DNA of 64,000 bases from the sequence record OR544956, one strand, 5' to 3'. This document shows, piece by piece, positions 14,346-55,515 of the stretch (position 1 is the stretch's first letter; every line of letters starts with the position of its first letter). Below the pieces are notes generated by a model. It was not told where the DNA came from. It did not search any database and was given only the letters and a program-made list of their open reading frames with translations. The translations under genes were made by a program, and so were the position numbers. The stretch is from Escherichia phage vB_EcoM_EP57.

Positions 14346-15140
14346 TTGAGCAAGTTGAATACACTTGATCAATATTACACTAACCCCGCTTATGCGGGGT
14401 TCTTATGTGATAAGATCAAAGAAATTTTTGGAGAGGAAGCTAACTACGTAGAACCATCTGCGGGAGAAGGAGCTTTCTCTTTTTGTTTTAAAAACATAAC
14501 TTCTTTTGATATTGATCCTAAGTTTGAAGATTGTATTGAGGCAGATTTTTTAGCTCAATCTGTTGAGTCTGTTGGTAGTGTAACTGCTTTTGTCGGTAAT
14601 CCTCCGTTTGGAAAAAATGCCAGTCTTGCCATTAAGTTCTTTAACCATTGTGCTGAAATGTTGGATAACGAAGGTGGTATTTGTTTTATCTTGCCTCGCA
14701 CATTTCAAAAAATCTTTTTTGCACACAAACTAAATCCCCACATGCATCTTCTTTACGAAGAAGAATGTCCAAAAGGATCTTTTATTCTTCATGGAGAACC
14801 TTGGGATGTTCCTTGTGTATTCCAGATATGGATTAAACGCAACGAGAAGCGTTCTCCCGTTGTTTTAGGAGAAAATCGACTGTTCGTATTAGGTAACAGT
14901 AAAGACTACGACATAGCCGTTAGGAGAGCGGGAGCAAGTGCAGGTAAAGTGTTATCAGAAGAAGATTCTTTATCTGAAGCATCTACCTACTTTTTAAAAG
15001 CCTTGACTTCTGATCTTAAAACACGTATCATTGAGGCTTACCCGTTACTTAAAGCTGAAGCTAGTAAAACTGCGGGAGTAAGAAGTTTAAGTTTAAAAGA
15101 ACTTCAGTGGGTTCTGGAGAACATTAGAAAGGAGGAATAG
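14346..15140 (+). CDS. DNA N6-adenine (amino) methyltransferase
   Basis: Motif I-like EPSAGEGAF and catalytic motif IV GNPPFG (NPPF/Y); TTG start after aaggagga. Confidence 0.6.
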   Translation: MSKLNTLDQYYTNPAYAGFLCDKIKEIFGEEANYVEPSAGEGAFSFCFKNITSFDIDPKFEDCIEADFLAQSVESVGSVTAFVGNPPFGKNASLAIKFFNHCAEMLDNEGGICFILPRTFQKIFFAHKLNPHMHLLYEEECPKGSFILHGEPWDVPCVFQIWIKRNEKRSPVVLGENRLFVLGNSKDYDIAVRRAGASAGKVLSEEDSLSEASTYFLKALTSDLKTRIIEAYPLLKAEASKTAGVRSLSLKELQWVLENIRKEE

Positions 15141-17737
15141 TGAGTAAGTTTACATGGGATATTGAAGCAAACGGATTGTTGAATAATGACACTATTGATT
15201 ATTTAGCTAGTCCTTATCGTCTCAAAGACACATTTCAAATGCACTGTATTGTCTTAGAGAACCATGAAACAGGAGAAATAGTAGCTTTCCACGATGGCCC
15301 TAAATACATCTTTGATGGGCGTCCTTATGAAGAGTCAGATGGTAAATACACATATGTTCTTAAAGAGTATGTGGCGCAAGATTACACACATTTTCAACTA
15401 AAAGATTTCCCAGATTTTATTAATCATGAAGGTTATTTTAAAGATAAGCCTGAATATCTGGTTGAAATGGCTGTGGCTCACAACGGTATCAACTACGACT
15501 GGTTGGCTACAAAACTGTTTTATGGATTAGATTACAGTGTTAAATATAATACGTGGGGCAAAAATAAGGTAAAACTTATTGACTCCTTGATTTTGAGTAA
15601 AGTGTTAAACCCAGATCGAAAGATTGAGGGCAAATCAGGACATAGCTTGGCAGCACTTTCTCGAAAAGCAGGTGGTGATGTAAAAATAGATTTCCGTAAA
15701 GAGATTCCAGAAGAAGATCGATTTAAGACTTTTGCTGCGGATATGCTTTATTACTGTATCTATGACAACAAAGCCAATACGAGCGTATATAATTACCTTA
15801 TGGAAGAATGGGGTGATTATGATAAATGGGAAGGTCCATTTGAACTTGAACAACGTGTAGCAGACATTATTACACGTCAGGAACACCGTGGATTTGCTTT
15901 TAACATGAAACAAGCAGAAGAGAACCTTGCTTTTTTGGATGCAGAAATGGAGCGTCTTCGTTTACTCGTTGAGCCTATTTTGCCACCTAAACCAGCAACA
16001 AAAGGTTATCTTAAGGCTTTTATTCCACCTAAGTTGCAAATTAAAAAGAACTTAGAGCCAACTAACCATATGATCAATTTTGCTAAGAAACATGATGGTC
16101 ATTTGGAAGAGAGGGATGGCGATTGGTGGTTAGTTATGTTGGGGAAAGAGTGGAAACTGCCAGTTGCAGCAGATGAGCCTCTATGTGATCCTAACATCCC
16201 TGCAACATTGAACGATACAACCCATATTAAAAACTGGCTTGTAGGATTAGGTTGGGTACCGTCTGAATATAAAGATAAAGACTTGACGCTTAAATCTGGC
16301 ACCAAAATTAAAAAGAGCGAGGAAGAACTTCAGAAAGGTATTCGAGCTTACGTTGAGCAAACTCTATCTTCTAATTTTTGTCAGGATCGTTGTGATCATC
16401 TGGAGTGCACACCGGAAACCTTGGAAAGGAAGATTCAAGAGCGTATAGCAAAAGGTAAAGGTCGCGGTCTTAAAGTATTGACTAACCCGTGTTTTACCAA
16501 AGGTCAGGAAAAAGAAATTTGTCCTAACCTGCAAGCTTTGGGTGAGAAGTTTCCTTATGCTACACAGATTGTAGAATACTTAACGTATAAGCATCGTAGG
16601 AACTCTATTTTAGGTGGCGGTGCTGATTGGGAAGAAGATGAAGAAGATCAAGAATACGATAAAGGTTTCTTAGCCGCAGTAAGGGCGGATGGTCGTATTC
16701 CTACCCCAGCAGCTACATGTGATGCTGCAACCTCTCGTATGAAGCATAGGTCTGTAGCTAATATTCCTCGTGTCACATCTTTGTTTGGATGGGAGATGCG
16801 TAACTTGTTTGGTGTAGAGGTTCCTAAATACTTCCAGATTGGCTACGACTTCGACTCTTTGGAAGCAAAAATTGAATCACACTACTGTTGGCGGTACGAG
16901 CCGGAGCCACACGAATATTGTAACGCTCTGTTATTAGAGAAACCTAATGATGTTCACACAATGATGGCAAAACGTATCACTGAAACTATCGGACGTAAAT
17001 TTGAACGTAGTCCTGCTAAATCTGTTAAGTATGGTATTACCTATGGTGCACAAGCCGACAAGGTTGCTAAAACAATTGGTAGCGATAAGTTTACAGGTCA
17101 ATTGGTGTTCGATGCTTTCTGGGAAGCTGCATTCCCATTGGCGCGTCTTAAAGAACGTTTAAACGATTTCTGGGTTAAGACTGGTAAACAATATGTTTTG
17201 GGTATTGACGGTCGTAAGGTTCCTACTCGTTCTGCTCACGCGATTCTTAACTCTCTGTTCCAAAGCGGCGGGGTTATCTGTGCTAAACGTGCAATGGTTA
17301 TTTATGACGACATGATCGAAGAAGAAGGGCTAAGTGTTGACTTCTTTAAAGATGACTGGAAGAATAAAGATTTCGTGCAACAAATGATTGCATATCACGA
17401 TGAAGCCCAGCTTGAAGTTTCTCGTAACCTTGTAGAATTTAAATGGTTTTCACCTGAATCATTAGGTTGGAAGAAAGTAGACGATCCTGAAGAACAAAAG
17501 AAAATTGATAAAGAATGCCTTGCTAAAGTTGAAGAATGGAAGCATAATAAGGAAAAAGAGACGGGACAAATTTGGGCTAACATTCATGAATCTCCCAAAG
17601 GTGGATGGTTTACAGCCTATAGTCGGGCAGGTGAACTTGCTGCTTTAGCTGTTACTAAGGCTGGAGAATTTTACAATCTTAACGTTCAGCTTACTGCCGG
17701 ATATGATGTGGGTAACTCTTGGGCGTCCTGTCACTAG
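15140..17737 (+). CDS. DNA polymerase, family A (T7 gp5-like) with N-terminal 3'-5' exonuclease
   Basis: WDIEANGL exonuclease motif; C-terminus RSAHAILNSLFQSGG ... GNSWASCH resembles T7 gp5 (RSPHAALNTLLQSAG ... GPNWAICH); GTG start after aggagg. Confidence 0.85.
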   Translation: MSKFTWDIEANGLLNNDTIDYLASPYRLKDTFQMHCIVLENHETGEIVAFHDGPKYIFDGRPYEESDGKYTYVLKEYVAQDYTHFQLKDFPDFINHEGYFKDKPEYLVEMAVAHNGINYDWLATKLFYGLDYSVKYNTWGKNKVKLIDSLILSKVLNPDRKIEGKSGHSLAALSRKAGGDVKIDFRKEIPEEDRFKTFAADMLYYCIYDNKANTSVYNYLMEEWGDYDKWEGPFELEQRVADIITRQEHRGFAFNMKQAEENLAFLDAEMERLRLLVEPILPPKPATKGYLKAFIPPKLQIKKNLEPTNHMINFAKKHDGHLEERDGDWWLVMLGKEWKLPVAADEPLCDPNIPATLNDTTHIKNWLVGLGWVPSEYKDKDLTLKSGTKIKKSEEELQKGIRAYVEQTLSSNFCQDRCDHLECTPETLERKIQERIAKGKGRGLKVLTNPCFTKGQEKEICPNLQALGEKFPYATQIVEYLTYKHRRNSILGGGADWEEDEEDQEYDKGFLAAVRADGRIPTPAATCDAATSRMKHRSVANIPRVTSLFGWEMRNLFGVEVPKYFQIGYDFDSLEAKIESHYCWRYEPEPHEYCNALLLEKPNDVHTMMAKRITETIGRKFERSPAKSVKYGITYGAQADKVAKTIGSDKFTGQLVFDAFWEAAFPLARLKERLNDFWVKTGKQYVLGIDGRKVPTRSAHAILNSLFQSGGVICAKRAMVIYDDMIEEEGLSVDFFKDDWKNKDFVQQMIAYHDEAQLEVSRNLVEFKWFSPESLGWKKVDDPEEQKKIDKECLAKVEEWKHNKEKETGQIWANIHESPKGGWFTAYSRAGELAALAVTKAGEFYNLNVQLTAGYDVGNSWASCH

Positions 17738-17977: not shown

Positions 17978-18154
17978 TGGGAAATGGTATCATGATTTGC
18001 TATAAAATTGTGCGTATTGTCGGAGACGAAGTTACCACTCGGTATTTTATGATAGAGTCTCAAGCCGATGAGGTTTACAATGACTGGCTTGAAAAAGGTG
18101 GATACGATTTTGTATCTAAAGAAACTTTCCGTTTAGAAGTATAAGGAGAAAACA

Positions 18155-18373
18155 ATGCGTAAACTAGTGAGCTTTAATGTTTCAATTCTTATTGATGAAC
18201 AAAATGAAGATGTTATTAAAGGTCTTGCAAATAAGATTGCAGGTGGAATGACGGAAGCTGAAGTGTGGGAAGAATGTGCTCGACTTTATGAGGAAGGTGT
18301 TATTGAGGTCTTGGGAGATGAGATTAATATGGACGATATTGTTAAAGTAACTGTGGAGCGTATCAATGACTAA
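18155..18373 (+). CDS. Hypothetical small acidic protein
   Basis: ORF track; aaggagaaaacaATG. Confidence 0.3.
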   Translation: MRKLVSFNVSILIDEQNEDVIKGLANKIAGGMTEAEVWEECARLYEEGVIEVLGDEINMDDIVKVTVERIND

Positions 18374-18593
18374 ATCAAAACAAATCAATATTGCCAAAGA
18401 AATTCTTACCGTATTAAAGATCGCTGATCCTAATTCTGTCTTGGCTGGCGGTGCTGTTCGTGATTGGCGTATTCTTGATATTGCTGGACGTGATCTGGAT
18501 TTTTACACATCTCTTCCTGCACATCGGAAGGTGTTACTGGTCTTAAACACGTTTTTGAGTTTGAACGTGATGGTCAGCTTTGCAACCTTATGA
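18366..18593 (+). CDS. Pol-beta-superfamily nucleotidyltransferase (CCA-adding-like head), N-terminal segment; continues in the -1 frame
   Basis: VLAGGAVRDWRILDIAGRDLDFYT (GGxVRD plus DxD). Confidence 0.45.
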   Translation: MTKSKQINIAKEILTVLKIADPNSVLAGGAVRDWRILDIAGRDLDFYTSLPAHRKVLLVLNTFLSLNVMVSFATL

Positions 18594-18868
18594 TTATGGA
18601 ACCAAGCGTAATGACAACCTTTCTAAATGAGTTTGATCTGTCCATCTGTCAAGCTGCATTTGATGGGAAGGATTGTTATTATTCTAAAGATTTTGAAACA
18701 ACCTTGGAAACAGGGATCTGCTTCTTGCACAAAGATGTTAGAGAAGATGCCAAACACGTTATTAAAATTGCTACACGTTTCCCATATCTTCGTTTTGTGA
18801 AAGAGGTTAAGGTTCCACGTCCACCTCAAGTAGATACCAGATTGGAAGAAGATGATATTCCTTGGTAA
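18590..18868 (+). CDS. C-terminal segment of the nucleotidyltransferase (frame -1 relative to 18366..18593)
   Basis: This frame is open upstream of its first Met and reads ...EGVTGLKHVFEFERDGQLCNLMIMEPSV... Confidence 0.4.
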   Translation: MIMEPSVMTTFLNEFDLSICQAAFDGKDCYYSKDFETTLETGICFLHKDVREDAKHVIKIATRFPYLRFVKEVKVPRPPQVDTRLEEDDIPW

Positions 18869-18875
18869 TTAAAGC

Positions 18876-18905
18876 TTGACAATATTAAACATTTTATGAT
18901 AGGAT
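18876..18905 (+). promoter_or_regulatory. Candidate promoter (TTGACA-18-TAGGAT)
   Basis: -35 consensus at 18876-18881; -10 is degenerate. Confidence 0.35.
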
Positions 18906-18913
18906 AGCATTCA

Positions 18914-19306
18914 ATGACTGAACGTTCTAAGATAGCTGTTGAAACTGTTTATGGAAACTATACCAGTTTGACACTAGTTGAGAAAAATGTTGTAGGTCTT
19001 GACAACTCTTTTTATTTTCAAATTTTGGTTATTCAAGGTGGAAACAAGAAGCTAACTGCTCGTGTTGAAACATCTGAAATAATTGAAACCACTGTTACAA
19101 ACAAAGAATTCATTTCACTGCAAGATACAATCCGAAACGTTATAGACGAAGAAGGCAAAGCTGCCACAATTAAACTCGGAGGTTTCCCAGTGCAAATAGT
19201 TCATTTTCCTAATGGTGAAATTGGAGTTGGAATAGGTAAAGGTAAATACCTGTTAGAGCAAGATGATATGGAAAGACTCCGCTCTTTCTGTGCAAAATTA
19301 ATGTAA
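18914..19306 (+). CDS. Hypothetical protein
   Basis: ORF track. Confidence 0.4.
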   Translation: MTERSKIAVETVYGNYTSLTLVEKNVVGLDNSFYFQILVIQGGNKKLTARVETSEIIETTVTNKEFISLQDTIRNVIDEEGKAATIKLGGFPVQIVHFPNGEIGVGIGKGKYLLEQDDMERLRSFCAKLM

Positions 19307-19322
19307 TGTAGAGGAGATAATA

Positions 19323-20210
19323 ATGTCCGTAATTAATACTGAAACTGATCGTAAAGGCAAAACCGTAACTTATGCAACTGGTATCGTAGACTACGTTAAA
19401 CTGGATAAATTCGCTGAACCTAAAACTTTCCATTGGGAAGGAAAAACGATTGTTTCAACTCACCGAGCTTCTCTTGTTCTGAAAGAGAAAGGTGCTAAAC
19501 CAGATGAGAAAGGTGTTTGGATTTCTCTTGGTGACATTGAACTGAAAGAAGGTTATGAAAACCTGCAAGTCAAAGAAGGTGATAACTGGATCACTATTGA
19601 AAAAGGTGTAGAAGTAAGTATTGATATTGATCGCGTTGATAATAAAGGCGGTAAAACTTACTACAATACTAAAAAATCTCGTATTACAGTATTGTCTACC
19701 GAGGGTGTTCAGAAGTCTAACAAATCTTCTGGCAATAAGGGGTCCAACGATGCGGCTCCTAAACAATCCTATAAAAAACGTGATACTGTAGGTCTGGAAA
19801 CTGGTCACGCAGTAAATGGTGCACTGGAACTGATTCGTAATGGTGTTAAAGGCGATGCTTTCGATATTGCTGGGGTTGTTCAATCTGCAACTGTCACGCT
19901 GAAATCTGAAATTGCTGAATCTCGTGGCGTTGATATTAATGATTATGATCTTGGGGCATCTGTTGGTCACGCTATTCTCAATGCTTGTAAAGACCATACT
20001 ATTAAGACTGTCTCTGTAGAAGATCTGATTGATTCTGCTCGTAAAGTTCTGGCTCTGTCTGATAAAGTTGCTGCTGCCATTCGTGGTTCAGCAGAACAGC
20101 CTAAGAAAGAAGAGAAGAAAGAAGTTAAGAAACCTGAACCACAACCAGAACCAACTCCAAGTAATCAAGAAGAACCTCCAATGGACTTCGACGATGATAT
20201 TCCATTCTGA
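19323..20210 (+). CDS. Single-stranded-DNA-binding-like protein with an E. coli SSB-type C-terminal tip
   Basis: C-terminus EEPPMDFDDDIPF is essentially the E. coli SSB interaction tail (MDFDDDIPF), preceded by a Pro/Glu-rich linker. Confidence 0.5.
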   Translation: MSVINTETDRKGKTVTYATGIVDYVKLDKFAEPKTFHWEGKTIVSTHRASLVLKEKGAKPDEKGVWISLGDIELKEGYENLQVKEGDNWITIEKGVEVSIDIDRVDNKGGKTYYNTKKSRITVLSTEGVQKSNKSSGNKGSNDAAPKQSYKKRDTVGLETGHAVNGALELIRNGVKGDAFDIAGVVQSATVTLKSEIAESRGVDINDYDLGASVGHAILNACKDHTIKTVSVEDLIDSARKVLALSDKVAAAIRGSAEQPKKEEKKEVKKPEPQPEPTPSNQEEPPMDFDDDIPF

Positions 20211-20220
20211 TCTTATTGAT

Positions 20221-21849
20221 TTATAAAGAGTTTTTATAAAAGAAAAGATACTCAACAACCATACCAGGTAAGCTTGCTGCCCCTGTTGGCGTTATTTCTG
20301 CTACCATTGTTTGTGTTGTTCCTACATCCATCGCAGATAAGCTAGGAGTGTAAACGCTCAATGTTGAAGCATATCCTCCAGAGGTATCTGATAAAGTTGT
20401 TCCTTCAGCGTTTAAGGCTGTCATACCTGCATCAAAACCACCTTCTGCATGGAAAGTCATTAAACCAGTAGATGATATTGTCATGTTTGCAGGGGCAGAA
20501 GAAGTGTATTTAATATTGAAAAGTTTACCTCCTTCTGGGCTAACAGAATGTGTCAACTGTTTAGTTCCACCTACAATACAAATTCCTAAAGAATCTGTAG
20601 TTAAGCCAGTTGCCAGAATATCACCCGTAATCACGGAGCTTGCTATTGGTGTGAATTTATTATAGTTTAGACCGCTATTGAACAGATACGAGGCTTTCCC
20701 ATCTTTCCAAATACCGGAATAATACATATCTCCATTATAAACGAAAAAGGTTCCTTGATAACCTAATTGGTTAGTAACATCCATATTCAGCGTATGAACG
20801 CTTGTGAGCTTGTTTATATCCCAAGAACCCACTCCTTCAGGTTTAACTGGTTTTCCCACTTGGAGTGGATCTCCGCTCGCAGAATCATACCCCAAACCTA
20901 AGTTTGCAGTGTAGTTCTTACCAATAGCCCACAAGGAATTATTGATCCCAACGAAAAAAGAGTGGCGGCTTGGTGGAAACTTCCATGTTGAGAAACCTGC
21001 TGCAAAGGTATCCAGTTTAGTGTAGGTTGTTTCTGTATTAGACCTAACATATAAGTAGTTTACTGTACCCGAGCCACCGGAGGTATCTCCTACAACTATT
21101 GTCTGGGAAACTGTATTGATGTAATCTTTGACATACACTGTTTCAGTAGCGGATATCTTAGCATTGACAAAAGCTGTTGTTGTGTTATTATTACCTGCTA
21201 AACCTTTACTAGCTCCACAAACACGCAAGGTTCCCACATTGTTGACATAAGAGCATTGGTTGTAACCTGCATCAAAAGCAACTGCTGCACTTGTTATCTG
21301 ACGAGGAGTAGAAACTTCGTTAGTAGTACTTGCACCTAAACTACCTACTGTGTTTTGACCTGATCCATAAAGAACACCACTATTCATTAACCAGAGAGTG
21401 TTGTTATATCCTCCCTTAACCTCTTTAAGATTGGCTAAAGAGATAGTCCCTGTTATTACAGATGGAAAGCTGGTCCAAGTAGTTACACATGCGTCCGTAC
21501 CACCTGCCGCTATAGATCCTACCAATCCTGCTGTCAATCCTGAATATTGCCATCCCCCACTGTTAGTTTTAATAACAAAACAACGATCTGCGGTAAACAC
21601 ATCCGCTACTACAGTAGAAGCTAAGTGGAAATTATTGAATCGTGCACTACGAGTTCCATCTGCAATCTCACCAAAAAGGTTTGCGCCTTGAGTAAACAAT
21701 CTACCATCATTAAGCAAAATTGCTAAACTGCTATTAGAATTACCAGCATTATCTGGGTAATCTAAAGTGATTACTTTTTTAACAATACCTGCTGGCAGAG
21801 GAACGACACCAGTGCTGGTCATAATAGTAAATATTGGAATTGGAAACAT
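20221..21849 (-). CDS. Tail fiber or receptor-binding protein (Gly/Thr/Ser-rich, repetitive)
   Basis: 542 aa, last gene of the late module; repeated G-x-hydrophobic segments. Confidence 0.4.
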   Translation of the reverse strand: MFPIPIFTIMTSTGVVPLPAGIVKKVITLDYPDNAGNSNSSLAILLNDGRLFTQGANLFGEIADGTRSARFNNFHLASTVVADVFTADRCFVIKTNSGGWQYSGLTAGLVGSIAAGGTDACVTTWTSFPSVITGTISLANLKEVKGGYNNTLWLMNSGVLYGSGQNTVGSLGASTTNEVSTPRQITSAAVAFDAGYNQCSYVNNVGTLRVCGASKGLAGNNNTTTAFVNAKISATETVYVKDYINTVSQTIVVGDTSGGSGTVNYLYVRSNTETTYTKLDTFAAGFSTWKFPPSRHSFFVGINNSLWAIGKNYTANLGLGYDSASGDPLQVGKPVKPEGVGSWDINKLTSVHTLNMDVTNQLGYQGTFFVYNGDMYYSGIWKDGKASYLFNSGLNYNKFTPIASSVITGDILATGLTTDSLGICIVGGTKQLTHSVSPEGGKLFNIKYTSSAPANMTISSTGLMTFHAEGGFDAGMTALNAEGTTLSDTSGGYASTLSVYTPSLSAMDVGTTQTMVAEITPTGAASLPGMVVEYLFFYKNSL

Positions 21850-21860
21850 TTAAACCCTCC

Positions 21861-21886
21861 ATAAAAAGAAAGCCCCTTTCGGGGCT
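21861..21886 (-). terminator. Intrinsic terminator (AGCCCC-GAAA-GGGGCU then U-run)
   Basis: Hairpin plus T-run immediately downstream of the 21891..23429 stop on the minus strand. Confidence 0.45.
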
Positions 21887-21890
21887 TCTG

Positions 21891-23429
21891 TTATCGTGTT
21901 ACAACAACCATGTCCACGATATCACCCACACCAGGATACGTTAATTGCAAAATTGTTACTGCGTTAGCAGTAGTTGCTATTTCTGTATCATTTAGTGCTC
22001 CATAAGACGCATCTAGTGTAACCGTGTGTCCCGTTGTATCTTGAATCAAATAAATCATTGCTGAAAACGCTTTAGGTTTTGTAGAGCCAGTGACACCAGG
22101 CCATGCTCCAACTGTCAGAGCGTCAGTTACTGTAACAACATACATATTGGAAGTTCCAGAAGGAGTCCAAGATGCTCCAGAGTTGGCAGTAGTTGTTTCA
22201 AGTTCCATGAAACCTGCTGTAACTCTAGTTGGTGTTATAGCTTCCGTAGGATCTGATCCTGATATTTCGATCCAGTTTCCATCAGAACGACCATACGTCA
22301 AGCCGTCTTGAGGGGCTTCTGGTATACTAGGAAGAGTTCCTATAAGTGTCCACGTAGAAGAATCTGTTTTCTTAAACACTGCTCCAGTGGTAGTATTGAA
22401 GGCGTAATCATTGATAACACCGTCTCCTGCGACTGGATTAGTTGTTGCTACAAACCATTGTGCGCCGTCCTTACCGACAAAATCTACTTCTGTCCCTTCA
22501 TTACCAGCATCCAGCCAACTTTGATATGCAGATTTCCCTTCGTCTCCATCTGTTCCATCTAGACCGTCTTTACCTGCCTCACCTTGTGGACCTTGAGGAC
22601 CAACAATATTACCCATGTTGACCCAAGCTGTCCCATTAGAGACATAAAGATTACCACTGATAGAATAAGCTTGGCTTACGTTTTCAGAGTTAGGTTGTGG
22701 TAAGTTACTTGTAGAAGGCAAATCTCCACGATAATCAAAACCGTTGGCGTTAACACCAGGTGCTCCCTGTGGCCCTGTAGGACCAACATCGCCTTTATCA
22801 CCTTTTATAGAGGTAAGAAAATCATAAACAGACCCTGTATTACCATCTGCCAACCATACCTCGTAAGCTGATTTACCTTCTGGCCCAAGAGAAGAAATAA
22901 GTTTCCAAACAGAACCATCCCAAGCGTAAATCACATCACCTACAATATAACCGTCCCCTGCAACGTTACCTGTGGATGGTAGTTCACTAGTGCTTGCTAA
23001 TGATCCTTTAATATTAAGTTGAGCACCAGTATCCCCTTTCAAAGAGGCAAGCCATTGTGCTTCTGTTCCAACAAAACCATTATCAAGTGCGATCTGATAA
23101 GCCGATTTACCAGCTTCAGGTATTGTTTCCGACAGATCATCAATTTGTTGCTGCACTGCCGTAAACTTGGCATTGATAATTGCTATATCATCAGCGGTCC
23201 CAACACTTTGCCATGCAAGGGAAGAAATACCACCTGTGGTGGCTGGCGTAGAGTTTGCTGGAACTACTTTAGGAAAAGTTCCTTTCCATTGGTAATAATT
23301 CCCTTCTGCTGCTAACAGCAAAACTTCACGGGAATTACGTAATGTAAAACCTGCCTCAAAGCTGCGACGTTTTCGATAAGTAGCTTCTACCAGATCGGCT
23401 ATCGCACTATTAGGTCTTGTTAAATTCAT
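21891..23429 (-). CDS. Tail fiber protein with collagen-like G-X-Y repeats
   Basis: GDKGDVGPTGPQGAPG and GPQGPQGEAGKDGLDGTDGDEGKSAY; repeated KSAYQ/EVWL modules. Confidence 0.6.
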   Translation of the reverse strand: MNLTRPNSAIADLVEATYRKRRSFEAGFTLRNSREVLLLAAEGNYYQWKGTFPKVVPANSTPATTGGISSLAWQSVGTADDIAIINAKFTAVQQQIDDLSETIPEAGKSAYQIALDNGFVGTEAQWLASLKGDTGAQLNIKGSLASTSELPSTGNVAGDGYIVGDVIYAWDGSVWKLISSLGPEGKSAYEVWLADGNTGSVYDFLTSIKGDKGDVGPTGPQGAPGVNANGFDYRGDLPSTSNLPQPNSENVSQAYSISGNLYVSNGTAWVNMGNIVGPQGPQGEAGKDGLDGTDGDEGKSAYQSWLDAGNEGTEVDFVGKDGAQWFVATTNPVAGDGVINDYAFNTTTGAVFKKTDSSTWTLIGTLPSIPEAPQDGLTYGRSDGNWIEISGSDPTEAITPTRVTAGFMELETTTANSGASWTPSGTSNMYVVTVTDALTVGAWPGVTGSTKPKAFSAMIYLIQDTTGHTVTLDASYGALNDTEIATTANAVTILQLTYPGVGDIVDMVVVTR

Positions 23430-23446
23430 TTATCTCTCCTATCATT

Positions 23447-23464
23447 AGACCATTCTATTGGAAG
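23447..23464 (-). other. GC-rich hairpin (GAGGGGGG-AAU-CCCCCUC family), intergenic
   Basis: Similar to the hairpin at 7308-7327. Confidence 0.35.
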
Positions 23465-23491
23465 AAGAGGGGGGAATCCCCCTCTATTCCA

Positions 23492-24940
23492 TTAGGTTGT
23501 TGGCACATCTACTACTGGCGTTGGGCGAATAACCGCAGTATTACCTACAGAAACATTACTGGAATCATTAGGTATGGTTTTAATTCTAACTCCAGCACTT
23601 GTAGGCGTTACAATTGGATCTGCAATGTCTATTTTAACTGGGTTAGTCCACGTATCATTATCTTGATAAGGTGCACGAGTAATAACTGTGTCCAAATCTG
23701 CTCCACCTACGCCAGCACCAGGAATACGGATACGTGTCCCTGCTGACAGAGGGTAATGATACAACCAAGAAGCATTTGTTGCTGTCCCGTTAGGAGTCAA
23801 GTTCTGTGTCAGGAAGGTATCTCCTGCCTGTGTAGCTCGAATACCGAAAGCTGGGATATCTGGAATATATGCCCCACTTGTTGTTACAAGGAAGAACGTA
23901 TTATCCGCCTTGACTATCATATCACCTTTGTCAAACTCTTTCCCTGTTGGGAAATGCATTCCATCAATGTTTCGACTAGGATTAGGCTCTAAGTAATAAA
24001 CTTTGCCCGTTGTCCCTACAATAGCTCCAATACCACCTGCGATATTGGTATACATATTAGCTTCAACATTACAGTTGACACGATGAATATCCGAGTAACG
24101 GCAACGGCTCCACTGTGGACGACCAGTAACCATCGTCTTGCCATCTGGGTAACAGTTTACGTTAACCATTTCAAGAACAGATTTTTCTCTACGGAAGAAT
24201 CCATCATAAAATGTTCCTGGACCAGATTCAGGTTGACCAACACAATCGAAGATATTACAGGTGATGTTAGACATTGAAAGCCAAGAAGCTATACCGAACA
24301 ACTGCAATGCAGCGCAACGAATATTTTCAAAGCTAACTCTGTTTTCATAACCTGGCCCAGCGGAAACTCCCGCAAAAACACGCCCAGTTTTGGTGTGAAT
24401 GTTACGAACAGAATAGTTAAAGCATGGGTTTGAAGGTCTACCCTGTGCCGGAACTACCGGATTACCCTCTTCGTCCAGAACTGCGTTAGTTCCCCACTCC
24501 AAATAAATCATACGGATATTACTTGCAAGTGTGCTACCGTCTGTTTTAGGCTCCCCATAAACACCGTCAATCGTAAAATCTTTACTTCCATACATTACAA
24601 CTGCGCCAGTTGCCAAACCTGTCCCAACAGATACGGTTTGATCTGGATCGCCATGAATGTTTTCGATAGAAATATTACGACCAACTTCTACGTGGACAAT
24701 CTGACGGCAACGTTTTGCAAAAACGTTACGAATTGTAATATTCTTGCAATATTGATCATCAGGGATTCCGTAACCATATGGTCCTTTACCAGCTACACCG
24801 ATACCGATACCCCAGTTGGACAGAGGAATAGGAGCGTTAGTCCCATCGATATTAGACAGGTAAATATTCTCAATCACACAACCATCATCATAATGTTTAT
24901 TGATGACGTTCAGTTCTATCGCATCACCTTGCATGTCCAT
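23492..24940 (-). CDS. Tailspike or tail fiber C-terminal segment with a parallel beta-helix (pectate-lyase-like) region
   Basis: NITIRNV...ISIENIHG...NIRMIYLEWG repeats; its frame is open upstream of the first Met and overlaps the end of 24970..25704 in the -1 frame. Confidence 0.5.
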   Translation of the reverse strand: MDMQGDAIELNVINKHYDDGCVIENIYLSNIDGTNAPIPLSNWGIGIGVAGKGPYGYGIPDDQYCKNITIRNVFAKRCRQIVHVEVGRNISIENIHGDPDQTVSVGTGLATGAVVMYGSKDFTIDGVYGEPKTDGSTLASNIRMIYLEWGTNAVLDEEGNPVVPAQGRPSNPCFNYSVRNIHTKTGRVFAGVSAGPGYENRVSFENIRCAALQLFGIASWLSMSNITCNIFDCVGQPESGPGTFYDGFFRREKSVLEMVNVNCYPDGKTMVTGRPQWSRCRYSDIHRVNCNVEANMYTNIAGGIGAIVGTTGKVYYLEPNPSRNIDGMHFPTGKEFDKGDMIVKADNTFFLVTTSGAYIPDIPAFGIRATQAGDTFLTQNLTPNGTATNASWLYHYPLSAGTRIRIPGAGVGGADLDTVITRAPYQDNDTWTNPVKIDIADPIVTPTSAGVRIKTIPNDSSNVSVGNTAVIRPTPVVDVPTT

Positions 24941-24969
24941 GAAGGTAAGGTTACGGAAGACACCACGTG

Positions 24970-25704
24970 TTACTGGTTCCCCTGTCCCTTGTTGAAGCCA
25001 TATAACCCGTTTTTAAAAGTACAGTTATCAATTTCAAAAGTACCTGATATTGGGTTGCCTTGGAATACCAAGCTACCAACTTGACCTGCGCGAGGAGCAC
25101 CGTCCCACAAACAATCGAACATGCGCACAGCACCACCCCAATACATAACACGAGAGTTACGGAAAGTTGTGCCTTCTACTGTAGCATTTTGCACACGATA
25201 GTCGCGTTGACCACGGAACACACCCCCACGCAAAGTGATATCTTGAATATCAAAAGAGCTTGTCGTGAAAGTCATATCGCAACCGTAAGCATCGAGAATC
25301 TTGCTTTTCGAAGCTTTTGCTGCTAACAGTGCCGCCTGGAAAGCTGCTTCTGGTGTGGTATAGGTAGTTGTATTGTTAGCAAATTCTGACAAGTAGACAA
25401 CATCGAATAAATCGTTGTATGTTCCACCACGAGGGGTTAACAGTCCTTCCGTATTAGTTAGAACCCATGCGTTTGGACCTAATCCACCGCTTGTCTCTAA
25501 TGTGTCAGAGGCCAAAATACTTTTTGGTAAACTTCCAGCCCAACGATAACGACCAGCACCACGTCCAATCGTCTGATTTTTAGCTGTCAGGGTTACGTTA
25601 TTACCAAAGCTTGTAGGCAAATGGACAAATTGTCCACGTTCAACAGCCAGTGCAGAAAGATCTACAGATCCCCCAGAATAAGTCATTACTCCAGAAACAG
25701 ACAA
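24970..25704 (-). CDS. Tailspike middle segment, probably the same gene as 23492..24940
   Basis: This frame is open upstream of its TTG start; junction to the downstream ORF lies at a TTTTAAAAA run near 25010. Confidence 0.4.
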   Translation of the reverse strand: MSVSGVMTYSGGSVDLSALAVERGQFVHLPTSFGNNVTLTAKNQTIGRGAGRYRWAGSLPKSILASDTLETSGGLGPNAWVLTNTEGLLTPRGGTYNDLFDVVYLSEFANNTTTYTTPEAAFQAALLAAKASKSKILDAYGCDMTFTTSSFDIQDITLRGGVFRGQRDYRVQNATVEGTTFRNSRVMYWGGAVRMFDCLWDGAPRAGQVGSLVFQGNPISGTFEIDNCTFKNGLYGFNKGQGNQ

Positions 25705-25709
25705 AGATG

Positions 25710-26261
25710 TTAAAGTTCCTGTAATGTTAGGAGGTAGTGTGTAGGAAGACTGTGACTATCTTCTATGCGGAAAGCTTCCCCCAGAACCTGAATAACACCA
25801 TTGATCGTAACAATAGCACTATCAAAGATGTAAGGAGGACTAATTACTGTTTCATAACCAGTTGCACCAGAATATACCCAAGGGGTGACTTCTGTTGCCA
25901 ATTGTTCTGTCTTCAGTCCCCACAATACCCAGTTGTTATCTCCTACTGGAGTCCCTTGCATAGGGATAGGGTTAACCAATGTAGCGTTAGGAGCATAGTA
26001 ATAACCGCTCAATACTCCATTCTGGAAATAACGAAGTTGGTTAAAAACTGTTTCGTTTGTGCCTTGCGCCCAATCCAATGGGCTTTTAAAGAAAAAGTTG
26101 TCAACAAGGGCTTTTCTCAGGGTTGGTATCAACCCTGATTCTGTTTCAATACTCTCTGTAGCACTTCCATTAATAACATCATGGAGTTGGTTAGATGAGA
26201 AAATAACCAGGTCTACGCCCTGTTCGAGAGACGTTGCTGGATATGTTGGGAATGTTGCCAT
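25710..26261 (-). CDS. Tailspike N-terminal segment or separate tail-associated protein
   Basis: Ends 5 nt upstream of the next ORF; both frames are open across the junction. Confidence 0.35.
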   Translation of the reverse strand: MATFPTYPATSLEQGVDLVIFSSNQLHDVINGSATESIETESGLIPTLRKALVDNFFFKSPLDWAQGTNETVFNQLRYFQNGVLSGYYYAPNATLVNPIPMQGTPVGDNNWVLWGLKTEQLATEVTPWVYSGATGYETVISPPYIFDSAIVTINGVIQVLGEAFRIEDSHSLPTHYLLTLQEL

Positions 26262-26264
26262 TAA

Positions 26265-26516
26265 TTACCCCTTATTCTGTGTACGTTTAACTATGTCATC
26301 TAGCATCATTTGGATAGTCGCATTCTTGAGGTCCATAATCTTTTCAATTTTTTGCTCAAGGGTGTTGTTATTTGCCATTAATGTAGAGTTAATTTGATTT
26401 AGCATCTGGGTAAGTTCGGCTTTAGTTGCGTAAGTTGATTCAACAAAGACCAACTTCTTCTCTAGCTCTCGACTTTTCTCCTCCATTTCCTCAAGATCAG
26501 AGCCGAATTTATCCAT
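26265..26516 (-). CDS. Hypothetical coiled-coil protein
   Basis: ORF track. Confidence 0.3.
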   Translation of the reverse strand: MDKFGSDLEEMEEKSRELEKKLVFVESTYATKAELTQMLNQINSTLMANNNTLEQKIEKIMDLKNATIQMMLDDIVKRTQNKG

Positions 26517-26557
26517 TTTTTGTTTGAAAAAGAACCAGATGACTCCGATTAAAGGGA

Positions 26558-26950
26558 TTATTGCATCCTTTGCAAGTCCCCATGCGTAGCATCTGTAATA
26601 TTTGCCGACAAGTGATTATGACTGTTATCTAGAACTTGAATAGATAAAGTAACTTCTTTATTACCATTCCAAGTAGCCTCACCAGTAGCATCACCTGCCA
26701 TTGTAATCTTAGTTCCAACTAAAGGCAAGTAAGTATCAGGTAAAGTTGGAAGAAAGTCATCCACCAAATAGCGAATCCATAAACCGATATTATTAAGAAT
26801 CCAGTTCATTTCTTCGCAAGTCATGATTTGACCATAATCCATACCAACTGTGCGGATGGTTTCTTTAGGTCTAATTTTGTTTGTGTTTAAAGTTCCTGGG
26901 AGCGTTACAGTTTGTGTAGCCCAGTCAGGATAATATATTGGCTTCGCCAT
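26558..26950 (-). CDS. Hypothetical tail or baseplate protein
   Basis: ORF track; position in the tail module. Confidence 0.35.
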   Translation of the reverse strand: MAKPIYYPDWATQTVTLPGTLNTNKIRPKETIRTVGMDYGQIMTCEEMNWILNNIGLWIRYLVDDFLPTLPDTYLPLVGTKITMAGDATGEATWNGNKEVTLSIQVLDNSHNHLSANITDATHGDLQRMQ

Positions 26951-26959
26951 TTAAACTCC

Positions 26960-27589
26960 TTAATCTATTTGCTTGAGAAGCGTACACATGCGTCCTGTTT
27001 CATCCCCAGTAGATTCCATGTACAGGGAACCTAAACCACCAATACCATGAGGCGGTTTGGTAGCATAATAAGAACTAAAACCAAAAGCTGATCCTGCTTT
27101 TGCTCCAAGACGGTAGCTACTAATGATAGGGAAAACACTTAGCAACTGTTCTAAAGCTTGATCAGATTGAAGACACAGGTTGTAGAAAAACACATCAAAG
27201 GTTTTATTCAAACCTACGTAAGTATTAAGCGTTTCACGCTCTGTTCCTGTGAAACGGGCGAAGATATCAATTATGTCACCACGAGTCCCCGATGAGGCTA
27301 CGCGGTAAGCCCTGATTTTTAATATTGTTCTATACTCTTCATCATCAGAGCCATTACGTTCGATCCCCATTTCTTCTCCTAAGATATCTAGGTATTTGCC
27401 TGTGGCTGTGGAGATCAAGCGGTGTTTAGCAAGATAGATCATTGCCTGATCTATCTTTTGCTTTTCACTGGATACGATGTAGAGGAGCTTGACAATGTTA
27501 GGAGAAGATTTAAAATCTTCAATCAGAAGGTTTTTAACGTCTTCATTGATACTGGCCCAAGTTGTTACATGGTCAACACTCACTGCCAT
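26960..27589 (-). CDS. Hypothetical baseplate-associated protein
   Basis: ORF track; position. Confidence 0.35.
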   Translation of the reverse strand: MAVSVDHVTTWASINEDVKNLLIEDFKSSPNIVKLLYIVSSEKQKIDQAMIYLAKHRLISTATGKYLDILGEEMGIERNGSDDEEYRTILKIRAYRVASSGTRGDIIDIFARFTGTERETLNTYVGLNKTFDVFFYNLCLQSDQALEQLLSVFPIISSYRLGAKAGSAFGFSSYYATKPPHGIGGLGSLYMESTGDETGRMCTLLKQID

Positions 27590-27591
27590 TT

Positions 27592-27933
27592 TTACACTCC
27601 ATACTCGTAAGAAATGTTATCAAGGTCAAAAGAAGGGACAACATTATAAGCAGGAACTATATTATTCTCTGTATATTTACTGTCATCCTCAGTATTAAGT
27701 TTAACATAAACACGAAGAGAAGTCAAGCGTCCAAAAGCAAGTGCTGCATAAATAACCCCTTTGATTTGATCGTTCGTTACTGAAGAACCTAATTCAAAGT
27801 AAGCTTGCAGGTTTTGTAAAGCTTCTACGATGTTTTGTTTTTCTGTTCCACTTAAAGTTGTTCCGTTGACAGTTTGATAAACAAGTTTTACAGAATACAT
27901 AGCAGAAGCACCTTTCTTCAGCACTCCCTCCAT
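27592..27933 (-). CDS. C-terminal segment of the baseplate J-like protein (different frame from 27794..28969)
   Basis: Overlaps 27794..27933 with the upstream ORF, whose last ~40 residues look out-of-frame. Confidence 0.35.
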   Translation of the reverse strand: MEGVLKKGASAMYSVKLVYQTVNGTTLSGTEKQNIVEALQNLQAYFELGSSVTNDQIKGVIYAALAFGRLTSLRVYVKLNTEDDSKYTENNIVPAYNVVPSFDLDNISYEYGV

Positions 27934-28969: not shown

Positions 28970-29151
28970 TAGTCATCCTCTTTGGTAGATTGTGATCTGC
29001 CCCAACGTAAATCAATAAGATTTTTCATGAGGCGAGAAGGGGTTATCATGAAAACAAAAGCCCAACCCATCCATTCAGGAATTTCTTTTTCTATTCCTAA
29101 AAAGATAAACATGCCTGTCATAACAGACATGCCTACAGCGTTCCAGACCAT
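28969..29151 (-). CDS. Small two-TM membrane protein
   Basis: Two hydrophobic segments in 60 aa. Confidence 0.3.
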   Translation of the reverse strand: MVWNAVGMSVMTGMFIFLGIEKEIPEWMGWAFVFMITPSRLMKNLIDLRWGRSQSTKEDD

Positions 29152-29202
29152 TAACTTTTGATGTTTCGGGTAAATTAGTAATTGTAGTTGACATTTTTAC
29201 TC

Positions 29203-29517
29203 CTATATATAAAATTTTTGTGTTGTTACTAAATCTTCTCCAGATTTAGTGGCTAATGTAATTCCACTTATGGTGGCAATCTCAACATTTACCTGTTTAA
29301 GAGTGATATCCTGTAAATAAACGTTCAAAGGCACGTTACCCATATAGAAAACTTGGGATTGAGAATTAACTACCGTGATAGAATCGTGCATTATTTGAGG
29401 ATAGGCCCATATATATTGTGTAAGTCCGTCAAACTTATTGGCGTTCAACACTATGTTACCTATAATCATCTTCCAAAGATACGTGCGGTAGTTTGATTTA
29501 GGATCAAAGCCATACAA
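29203..29517 (-). CDS. C-terminal segment of the Calx-beta tail protein (-1 frame)
   Basis: Overlaps 29466..29517 with 29466..31283. Confidence 0.35.
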   Translation of the reverse strand: MYGFDPKSNYRTYLWKMIIGNIVLNANKFDGLTQYIWAYPQIMHDSITVVNSQSQVFYMGNVPLNVYLQDITLKQVNVEIATISGITLATKSGEDLVTTQKFYI

Positions 29518-53553: not shown

Positions 53554-53632
53554 TGGAGGCGGGAATTGGATTTGAACCAATGATCTCCAGCATATGAAAC
53601 TGGCGAGGACGACCAGACTCCTCTATCCCGCT
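53554..53632 (-). tRNA. tRNA with anticodon CAT (Met or Ile2)
   Basis: Manual fold: T-arm ATTGG-TTCAAAT-CCAAT, anticodon loop TTCATAT, CCA encoded; 1-72 is an A-C mismatch. Confidence 0.55.
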
Positions 53633-53638
53633 ATTATG

Positions 53639-53708
53639 TATCCCGTGCTGGATTCGAACCAGCATCACAATAAGCTGTGGAACTCTTATCCTGTAAGTCT
53701 AACGGGAA
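53639..53708 (-). tRNA. tRNA-like element, unassigned (anticodon arm cannot be folded; possibly degenerate)
   Basis: Good T-arm GCTGG-TTCGAAT-CCAGC and acceptor pairing, but only about 70 nt. Confidence 0.3.
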
Positions 53709-53710
53709 AC

Positions 53711-53784
53711 TGGTTGTTTCGACAAGAATCGAACTTGTGTCTCACGATTATCAGTCGTGGGTTCTACCATTGAACTACGAAACA
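53711..53784 (-). tRNA. tRNA-Ile (anticodon GAT)
   Basis: Perfect acceptor, T-arm and anticodon stem; loop CTGATAA; CCA encoded. Confidence 0.7.
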
Positions 53785-53790
53785 TTAAAT

Positions 53791-53867
53791 TGGTCGGAAT
53801 TGCAGGATTCGAACCTGCGACCCTACGCTCCCAAAGCGTATGCTCTACCAAACTGAGCTAAATTCCG
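53791..53867 (-). tRNA. tRNA-Pro (anticodon TGG)
   Basis: Perfect cloverleaf; anticodon loop TTTGGGA; CCA encoded. Confidence 0.7.
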
Positions 53868-53960
53868 TCATAACATTCTAAAGGTACACCGCAAAAGAAA
53901 GTGTTCGGCGGCTCCTCGTTTTTAACTTCACACTTGAGGTAGTGACTCACCTTTGTTATA

Positions 53961-54036
53961 TGGCTGGTCTGTCTGGATTTGAACCAAACCTACGACAGTC
54001 AAAGTGTCGTGTGCTACCGGACTACACTACAAACCA
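53961..54036 (-). tRNA. tRNA-Gln (anticodon TTG)
   Basis: Cloverleaf with anticodon loop CTTTGAC; CCA encoded. Confidence 0.65.
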
Positions 54037-54134
54037 ATAAATCATTTAATGAAGGGCAACCAGAAGAGGTGTGAGAGAAGGAGAAAACCATGAGTAAAAG
54101 AGAAAGTTTTCTGGCAACCCTTTATTAAATAATT

Positions 54135-54208
54135 TGGAGCGTTCTACGAGGATCGAACTCGTGCCGCCGACTTGGAAGGACGGAATGCTACCGCTACACC
54201 AAGAACGC
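54135..54208 (-). tRNA. tRNA-Gly (anticodon TCC)
   Basis: Acceptor GCGTTCT/AGAACGC, anticodon loop CTTCCAA; one mismatch in the anticodon stem. Confidence 0.55.
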
Positions 54209-54219
54209 CCTACATCTTT

Positions 54220-54249
54220 ACTATACTACATTTTACTATTGGTTGTCAA
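54220..54249 (-). promoter_or_regulatory. tRNA-operon promoter 1 (CTATTGACAA-18-TATAGT)
   Basis: Minus strand; -10 ends about 11 nt before the tRNA-Gly 5' end. Confidence 0.55.
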
Positions 54250-54524
54250 TAGTTTTATTGAGTGGGACAGTGACGAGTATCCCGTTGGGTGACTAGCCCT
54301 ACGTTCGGTAAGCTAACTTAAAATAATACAAAACCAAAGTCAAATATTATTCTTCGTTGCTGTCGATGGGAGAGCCGCTTCTCATTTTGCCCCATCCAAC
54401 CCTACTCCGGTCAAGTTTCGGGTAACTCTTTTTGTGTGATCAACACAATACTAAGAACACTGTCTTTCGAACAGACCTTGTGCACAGGATACGACGATCA
54501 ATCACAGTGCTCTTAATGTTGTGT

Positions 54525-54599
54525 TGGTGCTCCCACACTGAATCGAACAGAGATCCACGGATTACAAAACCGTTGTAATAGCCATTATACTATAGGAGC
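54525..54599 (-). tRNA. tRNA-Thr (anticodon TGT)
   Basis: Anticodon loop TTTGTAA; minor stem mismatches. Confidence 0.5.
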
Positions 54600-54605
54600 A
54601 AAGCT

Positions 54606-54682
54606 GGGACTCGGCAGGATTCGATACCTGCAATTCCAGAAGCCTCTTGGCGACTGGGGGTTTACCTTAACTCTACAAGTCC
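54606..54682 (-). tRNA. tRNA-like element, unassigned (T-arm near-identical to tRNA-Pro but with an 8-nt loop; no foldable anticodon arm)
   Basis: gcaggattcgatacctgc versus gcaggattcgaacctgc in tRNA-Pro. Confidence 0.3.
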
Positions 54683-54689
54683 ATAATTC

Positions 54690-54775
54690 TGGCGATGAGT
54701 ATAGGATTTGAACCTATATCGTTCTTTCGAACACGGATTAACAGTCCGCCGCTTAAACCATTCAGCCAACTCATC
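54690..54775 (-). tRNA. Class II (long variable arm) tRNA with anticodon GTT
   Basis: Perfect acceptor GATGAGT/ACTCATC, T-arm ATAGG-TTCAAAT-CCTAT, extra arm GTTC-GAAA-GAAC, anticodon loop CTGTTAA. Confidence 0.45.
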
Positions 54776-54781
54776 TTAATT

Positions 54782-54869
54782 TGGTGGTGAGTGATGGAGT
54801 TGAACCACCCGAATCGCAATGATAACAGATTTACAGTCTGCCCCGCTACCCCTACGGAATTAACTCACC
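54782..54869 (-). tRNA. tRNA-Tyr (anticodon GTA), class II
   Basis: Anticodon arm CAGA-CTGTAAA-TCTG as in E. coli tRNA-Tyr; 88 nt. Confidence 0.6.
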
Positions 54870-54947
54870 TAAATACTAATATTTAAATTCTTTTTAAAAT
54901 AGCCAGTGTTCACACCACTAACTATGTAAGCCATATTAAAAAGAACT

Positions 54948-55033
54948 TGGCGGTAGATGTAGGACTCGAACCTACACGCCGTTTCCGACTACAGTTTAGC
55001 AAACTGTCGTGGCTACCATTTCACCAATCTACC
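54948..55033 (-). tRNA. tRNA-Ser (anticodon GCT), class II
   Basis: Anticodon arm ACAGT-TTGCTAA-ACTGT; long variable arm. Confidence 0.65.
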
Positions 55034-55038
55034 TAATC

Positions 55039-55129
55039 TGGCGGAAGGAGGGAGAGTCGAACTCCCAAGGCTCTTTCAAGCTCGGCGGTTTTCAAGACCG
55101 TTTTCGTCGCCACGTCGATTTGCCCTTCC
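55039..55129 (-). tRNA. tRNA-Ser (anticodon TGA), class II
   Basis: Anticodon loop CTTGAAA; long variable arm; 91 nt. Confidence 0.55.
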
Positions 55130-55137
55130 ATACTTAT

Positions 55138-55167
55138 AATCTAACATAAAATAATGTTTGTTGTCAA
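55138..55167 (-). promoter_or_regulatory. tRNA-operon promoter 2 (CTATTGACAA-18-TAGATT)
   Basis: Minus strand; -10 ends about 9 nt before the tRNA-Ser(TGA) 5' end. Confidence 0.5.
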
Positions 55168-55363
55168 TAGTTTTTTAAAACATTTTACCATGAATGGTGA
55201 CTCCACCAACCCCCGTTCTCCACGAACGGTGCTCTTCGAGCATTTATGTCTTCTAATATAACCGTGGCCTTTGTTTATAATGTCTGACATACTTGCCTCA
55301 TTCTCTGCCACCATGATCAGTAGTGGGTTCAAATTACTTGAGCTAATTCATGTTAAAATGTTC

Positions 55364-55438
55364 TGGTGTCTTTACAAGGAATCGAACCTTGACTAAGAGT
55401 TTAGAAGACTCCTGTGCTATCCATTACACCATAAAGAC
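55364..55438 (-). tRNA. tRNA-Arg (anticodon TCT)
   Basis: Anticodon loop CTTCTAA; acceptor GTCTTTA/TAAAGAC. Confidence 0.6.
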
Positions 55439-55440
55439 GT

Positions 55441-55515
55441 TGGTGGCCCTGGCTGGTTTCGATCCAGCTACCTATCGGTTATGAGCCGACAGCTCTCCCA
55501 TTGAGCTACAGGGCC
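55441..55515 (-). tRNA. tRNA with anticodon CAT (Met or Ile2), second copy
   Basis: Acceptor GGCCCTG/CAGGGCC, D-stem GCTC/GAGC, anticodon loop CTCATAA. Confidence 0.6.

Follow-up and report, generated by a model that had tools for sequence, protein, structure and literature searches.

A phage nucleotidyltransferase gene split in the genome record of Escherichia phage vB_EcoM_EP57, probably by an artefact of the record, and the predicted class II-like fold of its intact form

Two remnants of one nucleotidyltransferase gene

The stretch analysed here (hereafter the window) comprises 64,000 nucleotides of the genome record of Escherichia phage vB_EcoM_EP57 (OR544956). In the window, a family A DNA polymerase gene is followed by three small ORFs and then by a nucleotidyltransferase gene that is present as two overlapping ORFs, here called ORF A and ORF B (Table 1). 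The products of these ORFs match WPK29285.1 and WPK29286.1 of EP57 exactly, and the gene is annotated in the OR544956 deposit as two hypothetical proteins. The native 5' part within ORF A covers helix 1, strand 1, the GGAVRD helix and the DLD strand of the protein. These two motifs, from which the original prediction deduced a Pol-beta-type nucleotidyltransferase head, are both present in the sequence, and residues G28, G29, D43 and D45 within them are invariant in an alignment of 129 homologues, which speaks against their having arisen by chance. The predicted continuation of the C-terminal half in the -1 frame was likewise confirmed by translation. The frame of ORF B is that of position 18368, i.e. 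+2 or equivalently -1 relative to ORF A, and when traced upstream from 18590 it is open to approximately position 18490.

A promoter-like site (TTGACA, an 18-nt spacer and TAGGAT, with an upstream TG) is located at 18876-18905 on the plus strand, between the stop codon of the nucleotidyltransferase gene and an ORF at 18914. In a promoter and terminator scan around the gene, such sites occurred at chance level in the region.

Table 1. Positions in the window of the gene remnants, neighbouring and tRNA genes, and gaps relative to phage tuntematon
Feature	Position	Strand	Description
Family A DNA polymerase gene	15140..17737	+	Upstream of the nucleotidyltransferase gene, same strand; 865-aa ORF; annotated as DNA polymerase in tuntematon, phAPEC8 and P3322
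ORF A	18366..18593	+	75 aa; begins MTKSKQ...LAGGAVRDWRILDIAGRDLDFYTSLPAHR, then 21 further residues
Native 5' part, codons M1-R54	18366..18527	+	100% protein identity to residues 1-54 of the intact 197-aa tuntematon protein
GGAVRD	18447-18464	+	Residues 28-33
DLD	18492-18500	+	Residues 43-45
Deletion junction	18526..18528	+	91 bp absent, equal to codons T55-Y84 plus 1 nt; 2-nt (GA) ambiguity
Native 3' part, codons E85-W197 and stop	18527..18868	+	-1 frame; translation identical to tuntematon residues 85-197
Out-of-frame tail of ORF A	18528..18593	+	21 non-native residues KVLLVLNTFLSLNVMVSFATL, then TGA; judged against the translation of the intact protein
ORF B	18590..18868	+	92 aa; mechanical start is the internal Met106 codon of the intact gene (18590)
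Cluster of 11 tRNA genes	53554..55515	-	10 by ARAGORN and 1 by Rfam; about 35 kb from the nucleotidyltransferase gene
tRNA-Tyr (GTA)	54785-54869	-	Rfam, 39 bits; missed by ARAGORN; listed in the genome paper; CCA encoded
Large-gap junctions	near 78, 4379, 18527, 20246, 22476, 25756, 26585, 27912, 29148		Relative to tuntematon
Large-gap junctions, continued	near 29549, 38604, 43406, 54926, 57186, 57252, 57721, 58122, 63004		Relative to tuntematon
Small gaps, among others	~13520 (7 nt), 31909 (25), 32395 (17), 33615 (19), 41110 (28), 56504 (38), 56824 (20)		Relative to tuntematon

We used megablast of positions 18100-19000 against the phage collection to find intact counterparts of the gene. This yielded 64 records at 95-99% identity, all of them Phapecoctavirus, i.e. 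phAPEC8-like myoviruses of the Stephanstirmvirinae. Each of the 64 matched in two pieces, with 992 subject bases per 901 query bases, and in all of them the gene is a single ORF of 594 bp (597 bp in the Schickermooser and AV126 records) with a product of 197 aa. Relatives annotate this product as 'putative tRNA nucleotidyl transferase / poly(A) polymerase', 'nucleotidyltransferase' or 'hypothetical protein', and in searches of PHROGs the intact homologue was assigned to phrog_10174 (E 6.5e-63) and phrog_1614, both labelled 'nucleotidyltransferase'. The gene is thus already known: from phAPEC8 onwards, GenBank and PHROGs have listed it under essentially the reading that was later predicted from the window. 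Several records with about 98% identity to these E. coli phages bear the names of Campylobacter, Acinetobacter or Klebsiella phages, apparently because the host was mislabelled or the material contaminated.

In alignments with tuntematon (MN850618) and phAPEC8 (JX561091), the gene in the window shows a single 91-bp gap and otherwise only point differences. The frame changes because the gap comprises the codons of T55-Y84 and one extra base, and it also takes out the invariant Y84 and the conserved G69. The 503 nt that are left differ from tuntematon at seven bases, all of which are necessarily synonymous because neither protein part differs from the tuntematon protein (QHR71981.1). With synonymous differences only, the gene shows no sign of the degeneration that an old pseudogene would have undergone. 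Microhomology at the junction amounts to only 2 nt, approximately the level expected by chance.

State of the record and origin of the split

The EP57 genome (accession OR544956) was assembled with SPAdes from Illumina 2x150 reads, and the phage itself is viable, as documented by plaques, host-range, one-step growth and electron-microscopy data (PMC11657129). The same paper places EP57 in the family Autographiviridae yet in the genus Phapecoctavirus, the relatives of which are classified in Stephanstirmvirinae (PMC11657129). The record has a length of 130,723 bp, as opposed to about 145-152 kb in relatives, and the tRNA coordinates in the EP57 paper equal window coordinates plus 32,000.

We compared the whole 64-kb window with 87 kb of tuntematon to place the 91-bp gap among other differences. 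The two sequences are colinear at about 99% identity, and 18 clean large gaps of 51-4044 bp were found, in every one of which the window is the side without sequence. Smaller differences lean the same way, with 15 gaps of 2-38 nt representing losses in the window versus two small insertions, and these small gaps fall in non-repetitive sequence. Altogether, about 35 one-directional deletions of 2-4044 bp are distributed over the 64 kb, about 10.8 kb is absent relative to tuntematon, and many of the gap lengths are not multiples of three. The breakpoints were identical when the window was compared with phage P3322, and the interval 19300-30500 holds 11.2 kb in the window versus about 17 kb in all listed relatives.

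At the level of coding content, tuntematon has 58 ORFs of 150 aa or more in the region, and 20 of these are interrupted or missing in the window. The broken genes are those for primase/helicase, a 958-aa tail fibre, other tail and baseplate proteins, a structural protein and DNA ligase. The primase/helicase is cut into 506 and 111 aa by the 7-nt gap near 13520, and the 958-aa tail fibre is present as four pieces. At 57721/57722, the window lacks a 4044-bp block of tuntematon in which some 13 small early genes and the 5' portion of the DNA ligase gene are located; a second gap, of 107 bp at about 58122, additionally puts the ligase gene out of frame. A plaque-forming phage could not carry all of these lesions, and the most economical reading is therefore that stretches of sequence were lost during construction of the record. 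We conclude that the split of the nucleotidyltransferase gene is probably an assembly or consensus artefact of OR544956. De novo SPAdes assembly alone does not account for clean gaps; contigs may have been joined or uncovered stretches dropped. EP57 itself would most probably have an intact gene, 91 bp of which were lost in OR544956. With about a third of the large ORFs in the window broken, the record is unfit as evidence of gene loss or gene splitting.

Two other explanations of the split take the deposited sequence at face value. That the 91-bp deletion is genuine, and that a dispensable accessory nucleotidyltransferase gene of EP57 has thereby recently become a pseudogene, appears quite unlikely given that many of the one-directional gaps frameshift helicase, tail fibre and baseplate genes needed by a viable myovirus, that seven of the seven base differences from tuntematon are synonymous and that the junction microhomology does not exceed chance. 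These observations outweigh the facts that the deletion stands in the deposited record with two hypothetical proteins annotated across it, that the nucleotidyltransferase is an accessory gene with a shorter (137-aa) homologue in phage ICP1, and that further damaged alleles in public assemblies suggest that the gene may be dispensable and sometimes truly lost. If the window allele were real, it would be inactive, with ORF A stopping before the strand that bears E95 and Y84 missing. Still less credible, to the point that we give it hardly any weight, is a functional two-frame layout in which a programmed -1 ribosomal frameshift or a split enzyme of two subunits would operate. The stop codon of ORF A overlaps the start codon of ORF B (ATGA, 18590-18593) and a run of five T lies at 18552-18556, but the same overlap and the same run exist in the single-frame gene of all 64 of 64 relatives and are therefore not evolved signals. 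Moreover, the frame change coincides exactly with the 91-bp gap and its loss of Y84 and G69, the sequence G TTT TTG does not form an X XXY YYZ slippery heptamer, and no such heptamer occurs in the overlap of ORF A and ORF B. We rejected this design because the relatives are single-frame, the apparent signals are present in the intact gene as well and the shift is the deletion itself. The split is thus not a property of the gene and belongs to this record only, in which the same kind of deletion also breaks essential genes.

Two damaged alleles of the same Phapecoctavirus gene were seen in other public assemblies. One (P0019) encodes 105 aa on a Logan contig of 60,946 bp and is frameshifted after ...NVRKL, and the other (P0002) encodes 185 aa on a 766-bp ENA scaffold (L004) and has lost 12 aa in frame, the conserved SICQAAFDG stretch among them. 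These lesions may be assembly errors as well.

Family, predicted fold and genomic neighbourhood

We searched 1.84 billion cluster representatives with a profile built from 11 close homologues and obtained 1041 representatives at E <= 1e-3, of which 330 were at E <= 1e-10. Most of the 150 family members listed have 175-240 aa. The intact gene therefore belongs to a widespread family of phage enzymes, with about 1000 clusters and proteins of roughly 190 aa. The homologue in the Vibrio phage ICP1 (ORF223; L089, 9402-9815) has 137 aa, corresponds to query residues 4-127, is annotated 'nucleotidyltransferase' and has neither the C-terminal hairpin nor the neck helix. No informative additional domain emerged when longer fusion members (P0078, P0056 and others) were scanned with Pfam, PADLOC gave no defence-system match, and literature searches found no experimental characterisation of this nucleotidyltransferase family.

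Sequence profiles connect the family with class II nucleotidyltransferases through motif A. The original prediction had proposed a profile assignment to PolyA_pol. When the search was run, Pfam PolyA_pol (PF01743) matched the intact protein with 13.9 bits (E 0.07) over residues 26-65 only, short of the gathering score of 23 bits, and the assignment did not hold. The family member P0001 scored 15.5 bits, also under this threshold, and just 18 of 129 members reached E <= 0.01. The NCBIfam CCA and PcnB models gave 11-19 bits, compared with cut-offs of 290-439. A profile of the 129 sequences run against PDB sequences ranked CCA enzymes and poly(A) polymerases first (E 0.002-0.03, motif A only), and hhalign aligned the family with E. 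coli Cca over just 25 columns in the motif A region (GGAVRD...DRD) at a probability of 27%. PDB sequence searches with a single sequence or a small profile returned only noise (PYL1, Cas12f, allophycocyanin).

In class II enzymes, motif B (RRD) serves ribose recognition and motif D (EDxxR) is the amino-acid template for the selection of C or A. We examined the 129-member alignment for both, judging positional equivalence from sequence and secondary structure rather than from a residue-level structural alignment. RRD is not conserved anywhere in it, positions 118-121 being two variable residues, F and D, P or S. EDxxR is not conserved either, with positions 157-158 variable and position 161 occupied by H or Y instead of R; an EDAKH sequence at the motif-D-like position is confined to the Phapecoctavirus clade. 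Beyond the invariant residues of motif A, Q6, A10, A27, A30, R32, D33, W34, Y84 and K164 are conserved in at least 90% of the 129 homologues, and position 95 is E or D in 91 members and N in 20.

The predicted structure relates the protein to class II enzymes over a much greater length. An earlier AlphaFold model from 11 sequences had a pLDDT of 64.5, a poor C-terminal half and generic Pol-beta-fold matches only. With the 129-sequence alignment, the model of the intact protein reached a pLDDT of 92.4 and a pTM of 0.85. In Foldseek searches of the PDB with it, the top 24 matches were all class II tRNA nucleotidyltransferases (best E-value 7.5e-6), namely the CC-adding and A-adding enzymes of Aquifex and the CCA-adding enzymes of Thermotoga and Arabidopsis, and the alignments spanned 162-210 columns, essentially the entire query. 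The model has the features of the Pol-beta superfamily (an alpha/beta core in which a helix begins with a glycine-rich stretch, strand 2 bears DxD and an adjacent strand contributes a third acidic residue) and displays the three-dimensional head-plus-neck fold of the class II family. The protein ends at residue 197, soon after the first neck helix, and has no body or tail domains. These predictions support the view of the intact protein as a free-standing Pol-beta nucleotidyltransferase that corresponds to the head of class II enzymes and poly(A) polymerases together with their first neck helix. As a description of fold and motif A, the predicted 'minimal CCA-adding-like' character is thus fair, but the CCA-adding or tRNA-repair function that it implies is unsupported.

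Genomic neighbourhoods were compared at 80 IMG/VR loci (L008-L087) with 23-98% identity to the query, counting neighbours within 5 kb. A primase/helicase (phrog_239) is present at 56 of the 80 loci and a family A DNA polymerase at 53; 47 have both and 62 at least one. At these 80 loci the replication neighbours are almost always on the strand of the nucleotidyltransferase, and in most of them (e.g. L045, L062 and L065) the homologue lies between the primase/helicase and the family A DNA polymerase. An ORF resembling HNH-AP2 homing endonucleases is inserted nearby in 24 of these loci. Scanning 10 kb on each side of 60 related viral loci detected a tRNA of any kind at only seven. Vibrio phage 1.253.O (Zobellviridae), a 47-kb record without a tRNA gene, has a homologue beside a 5'-3' exonuclease and a polymerase-like gene, and a second Zobellviridae phage shows the same arrangement.

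Possible roles and relation to known enzymes

Taken together, these results make us fairly confident that the locus holds a known phage nucleotidyltransferase gene, broken here by an artefact of the record, the intact form of which is a stand-alone enzyme of the Pol-beta fold. By analogy with class II enzymes, catalysis would rely on two metal ions and on D43 and D45, E95 being the probable third carboxylate. Judging from the fold, the enzyme would transfer the NMP of an NTP to a 3'-OH, in all likelihood one belonging to a polynucleotide. The gene is part of a replication module, and CCA repair would be only one possible role.

The original prediction favoured tRNA repair or maturation, in view of roughly 14 phage tRNAs of which several would encode CCA. 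The window contains 11 tRNA genes (10 detected by ARAGORN and one by Rfam), as does the account in the genome paper (PMC11657129), and their 3' ends, read directly, show a genomically encoded CCA in 11 of 11. CCA is thus encoded as predicted, to a greater extent than 'several' conveys, and CCA synthesis is not needed for maturation because all of these tRNAs already possess it.

We consider it unlikely that the intact protein works as a minimal enzyme for CCA addition or 3'-end repair on the phage's own tRNAs. The nearest structures to its predicted fold are indeed CCA-, CC- and A-adding enzymes, motif A (GGAVRD...DLD) agrees with class II, and the phage has 11 tRNAs on which such an enzyme could act; some jumbo phages have also been reported to carry CCA enzymes as RNA-repair factors (PMC7824862). 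The EDAKH sequence of Phapecoctavirus, compared by eye, further resembles motif D in position. Nevertheless, with CCA already encoded in 11 of 11 tRNAs no maturation role is required, the body and tail domains that bind tRNA are absent (197 aa versus about 400 aa), RRD and EDxxR are unconserved across the family, and the Pfam and NCBIfam scores lie far under their cut-offs. Genomic context points away from tRNA as well, given the scarcity of tRNAs within 10 kb of homologues (7 of 60 loci), the homologue in the tRNA-less 47-kb Zobellviridae record and the conserved neighbours, which are primase/helicase and DNA polymerase. A tRNA repair or maturation role is therefore unsupported by these data. 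The common label 'tRNA nucleotidyltransferase / poly(A) polymerase' also claims too much for a protein with a class II-like fold but without tRNA-binding domains or specificity motifs, the gene for which lies in a DNA-replication setting.

Alternatively, the family might represent a new functional class of class II-like cores that serve the phage replication machinery and not tRNA. We offer this only tentatively; it is suggested by the position of the gene between primase/helicase and DNA polymerase, by the homologue in a tRNA-free record and by the family-specific residues W34, Y84 and K164. One conceivable activity in such a role would be 3'-end tailing or repair of primers or DNA, and the enzyme might use dNTPs, because the ribose-sensing RRD is absent. 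The probability that we assign neither to tRNA repair, with its small share, nor to a role in replication, with its somewhat larger one, goes to other RNA tailing or to non-polynucleotide acceptors.

Among known systems, the closest are the entries of the same gene family, namely PHROG 10174, PHROG 1614 and the phAPEC8 protein AFU62754.1 ('putative tRNA nucleotidyl transferase / poly(A) polymerase'), from which the window copy is distinguished by the missing 91 bp. Class II CCA-adding enzymes have about 370-450 aa, and their C-terminal body and tail domains bind tRNA. In comparison with class II tRNA nucleotidyltransferases and E. coli PcnB, the phage protein is half the size and has neither body nor tail. 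The phage family also lacks conserved motifs B and D and has conserved residues of its own (W34, Y84, H/Y161 and K164), sequence profiles detect its motif A alone and below curated cut-offs, and its genes are located in DNA-replication modules. A bacterial stand-alone protein of similar description is the 191-aa 'CCA-adding enzyme head domain' protein of Streptococcus pneumoniae (NP_344798.1, PDB 2la3), which the family profile missed in the PDB sequence search at E <= 10 and which is thus a very distant relative at best. MenT proteins add nucleotides at tRNA acceptor ends. The minimal nucleotidyltransferase toxins of the MenT type (MenT1, PDB 8an4) are, like the predicted form of the phage protein, small stand-alone enzymes of the Pol-beta fold.
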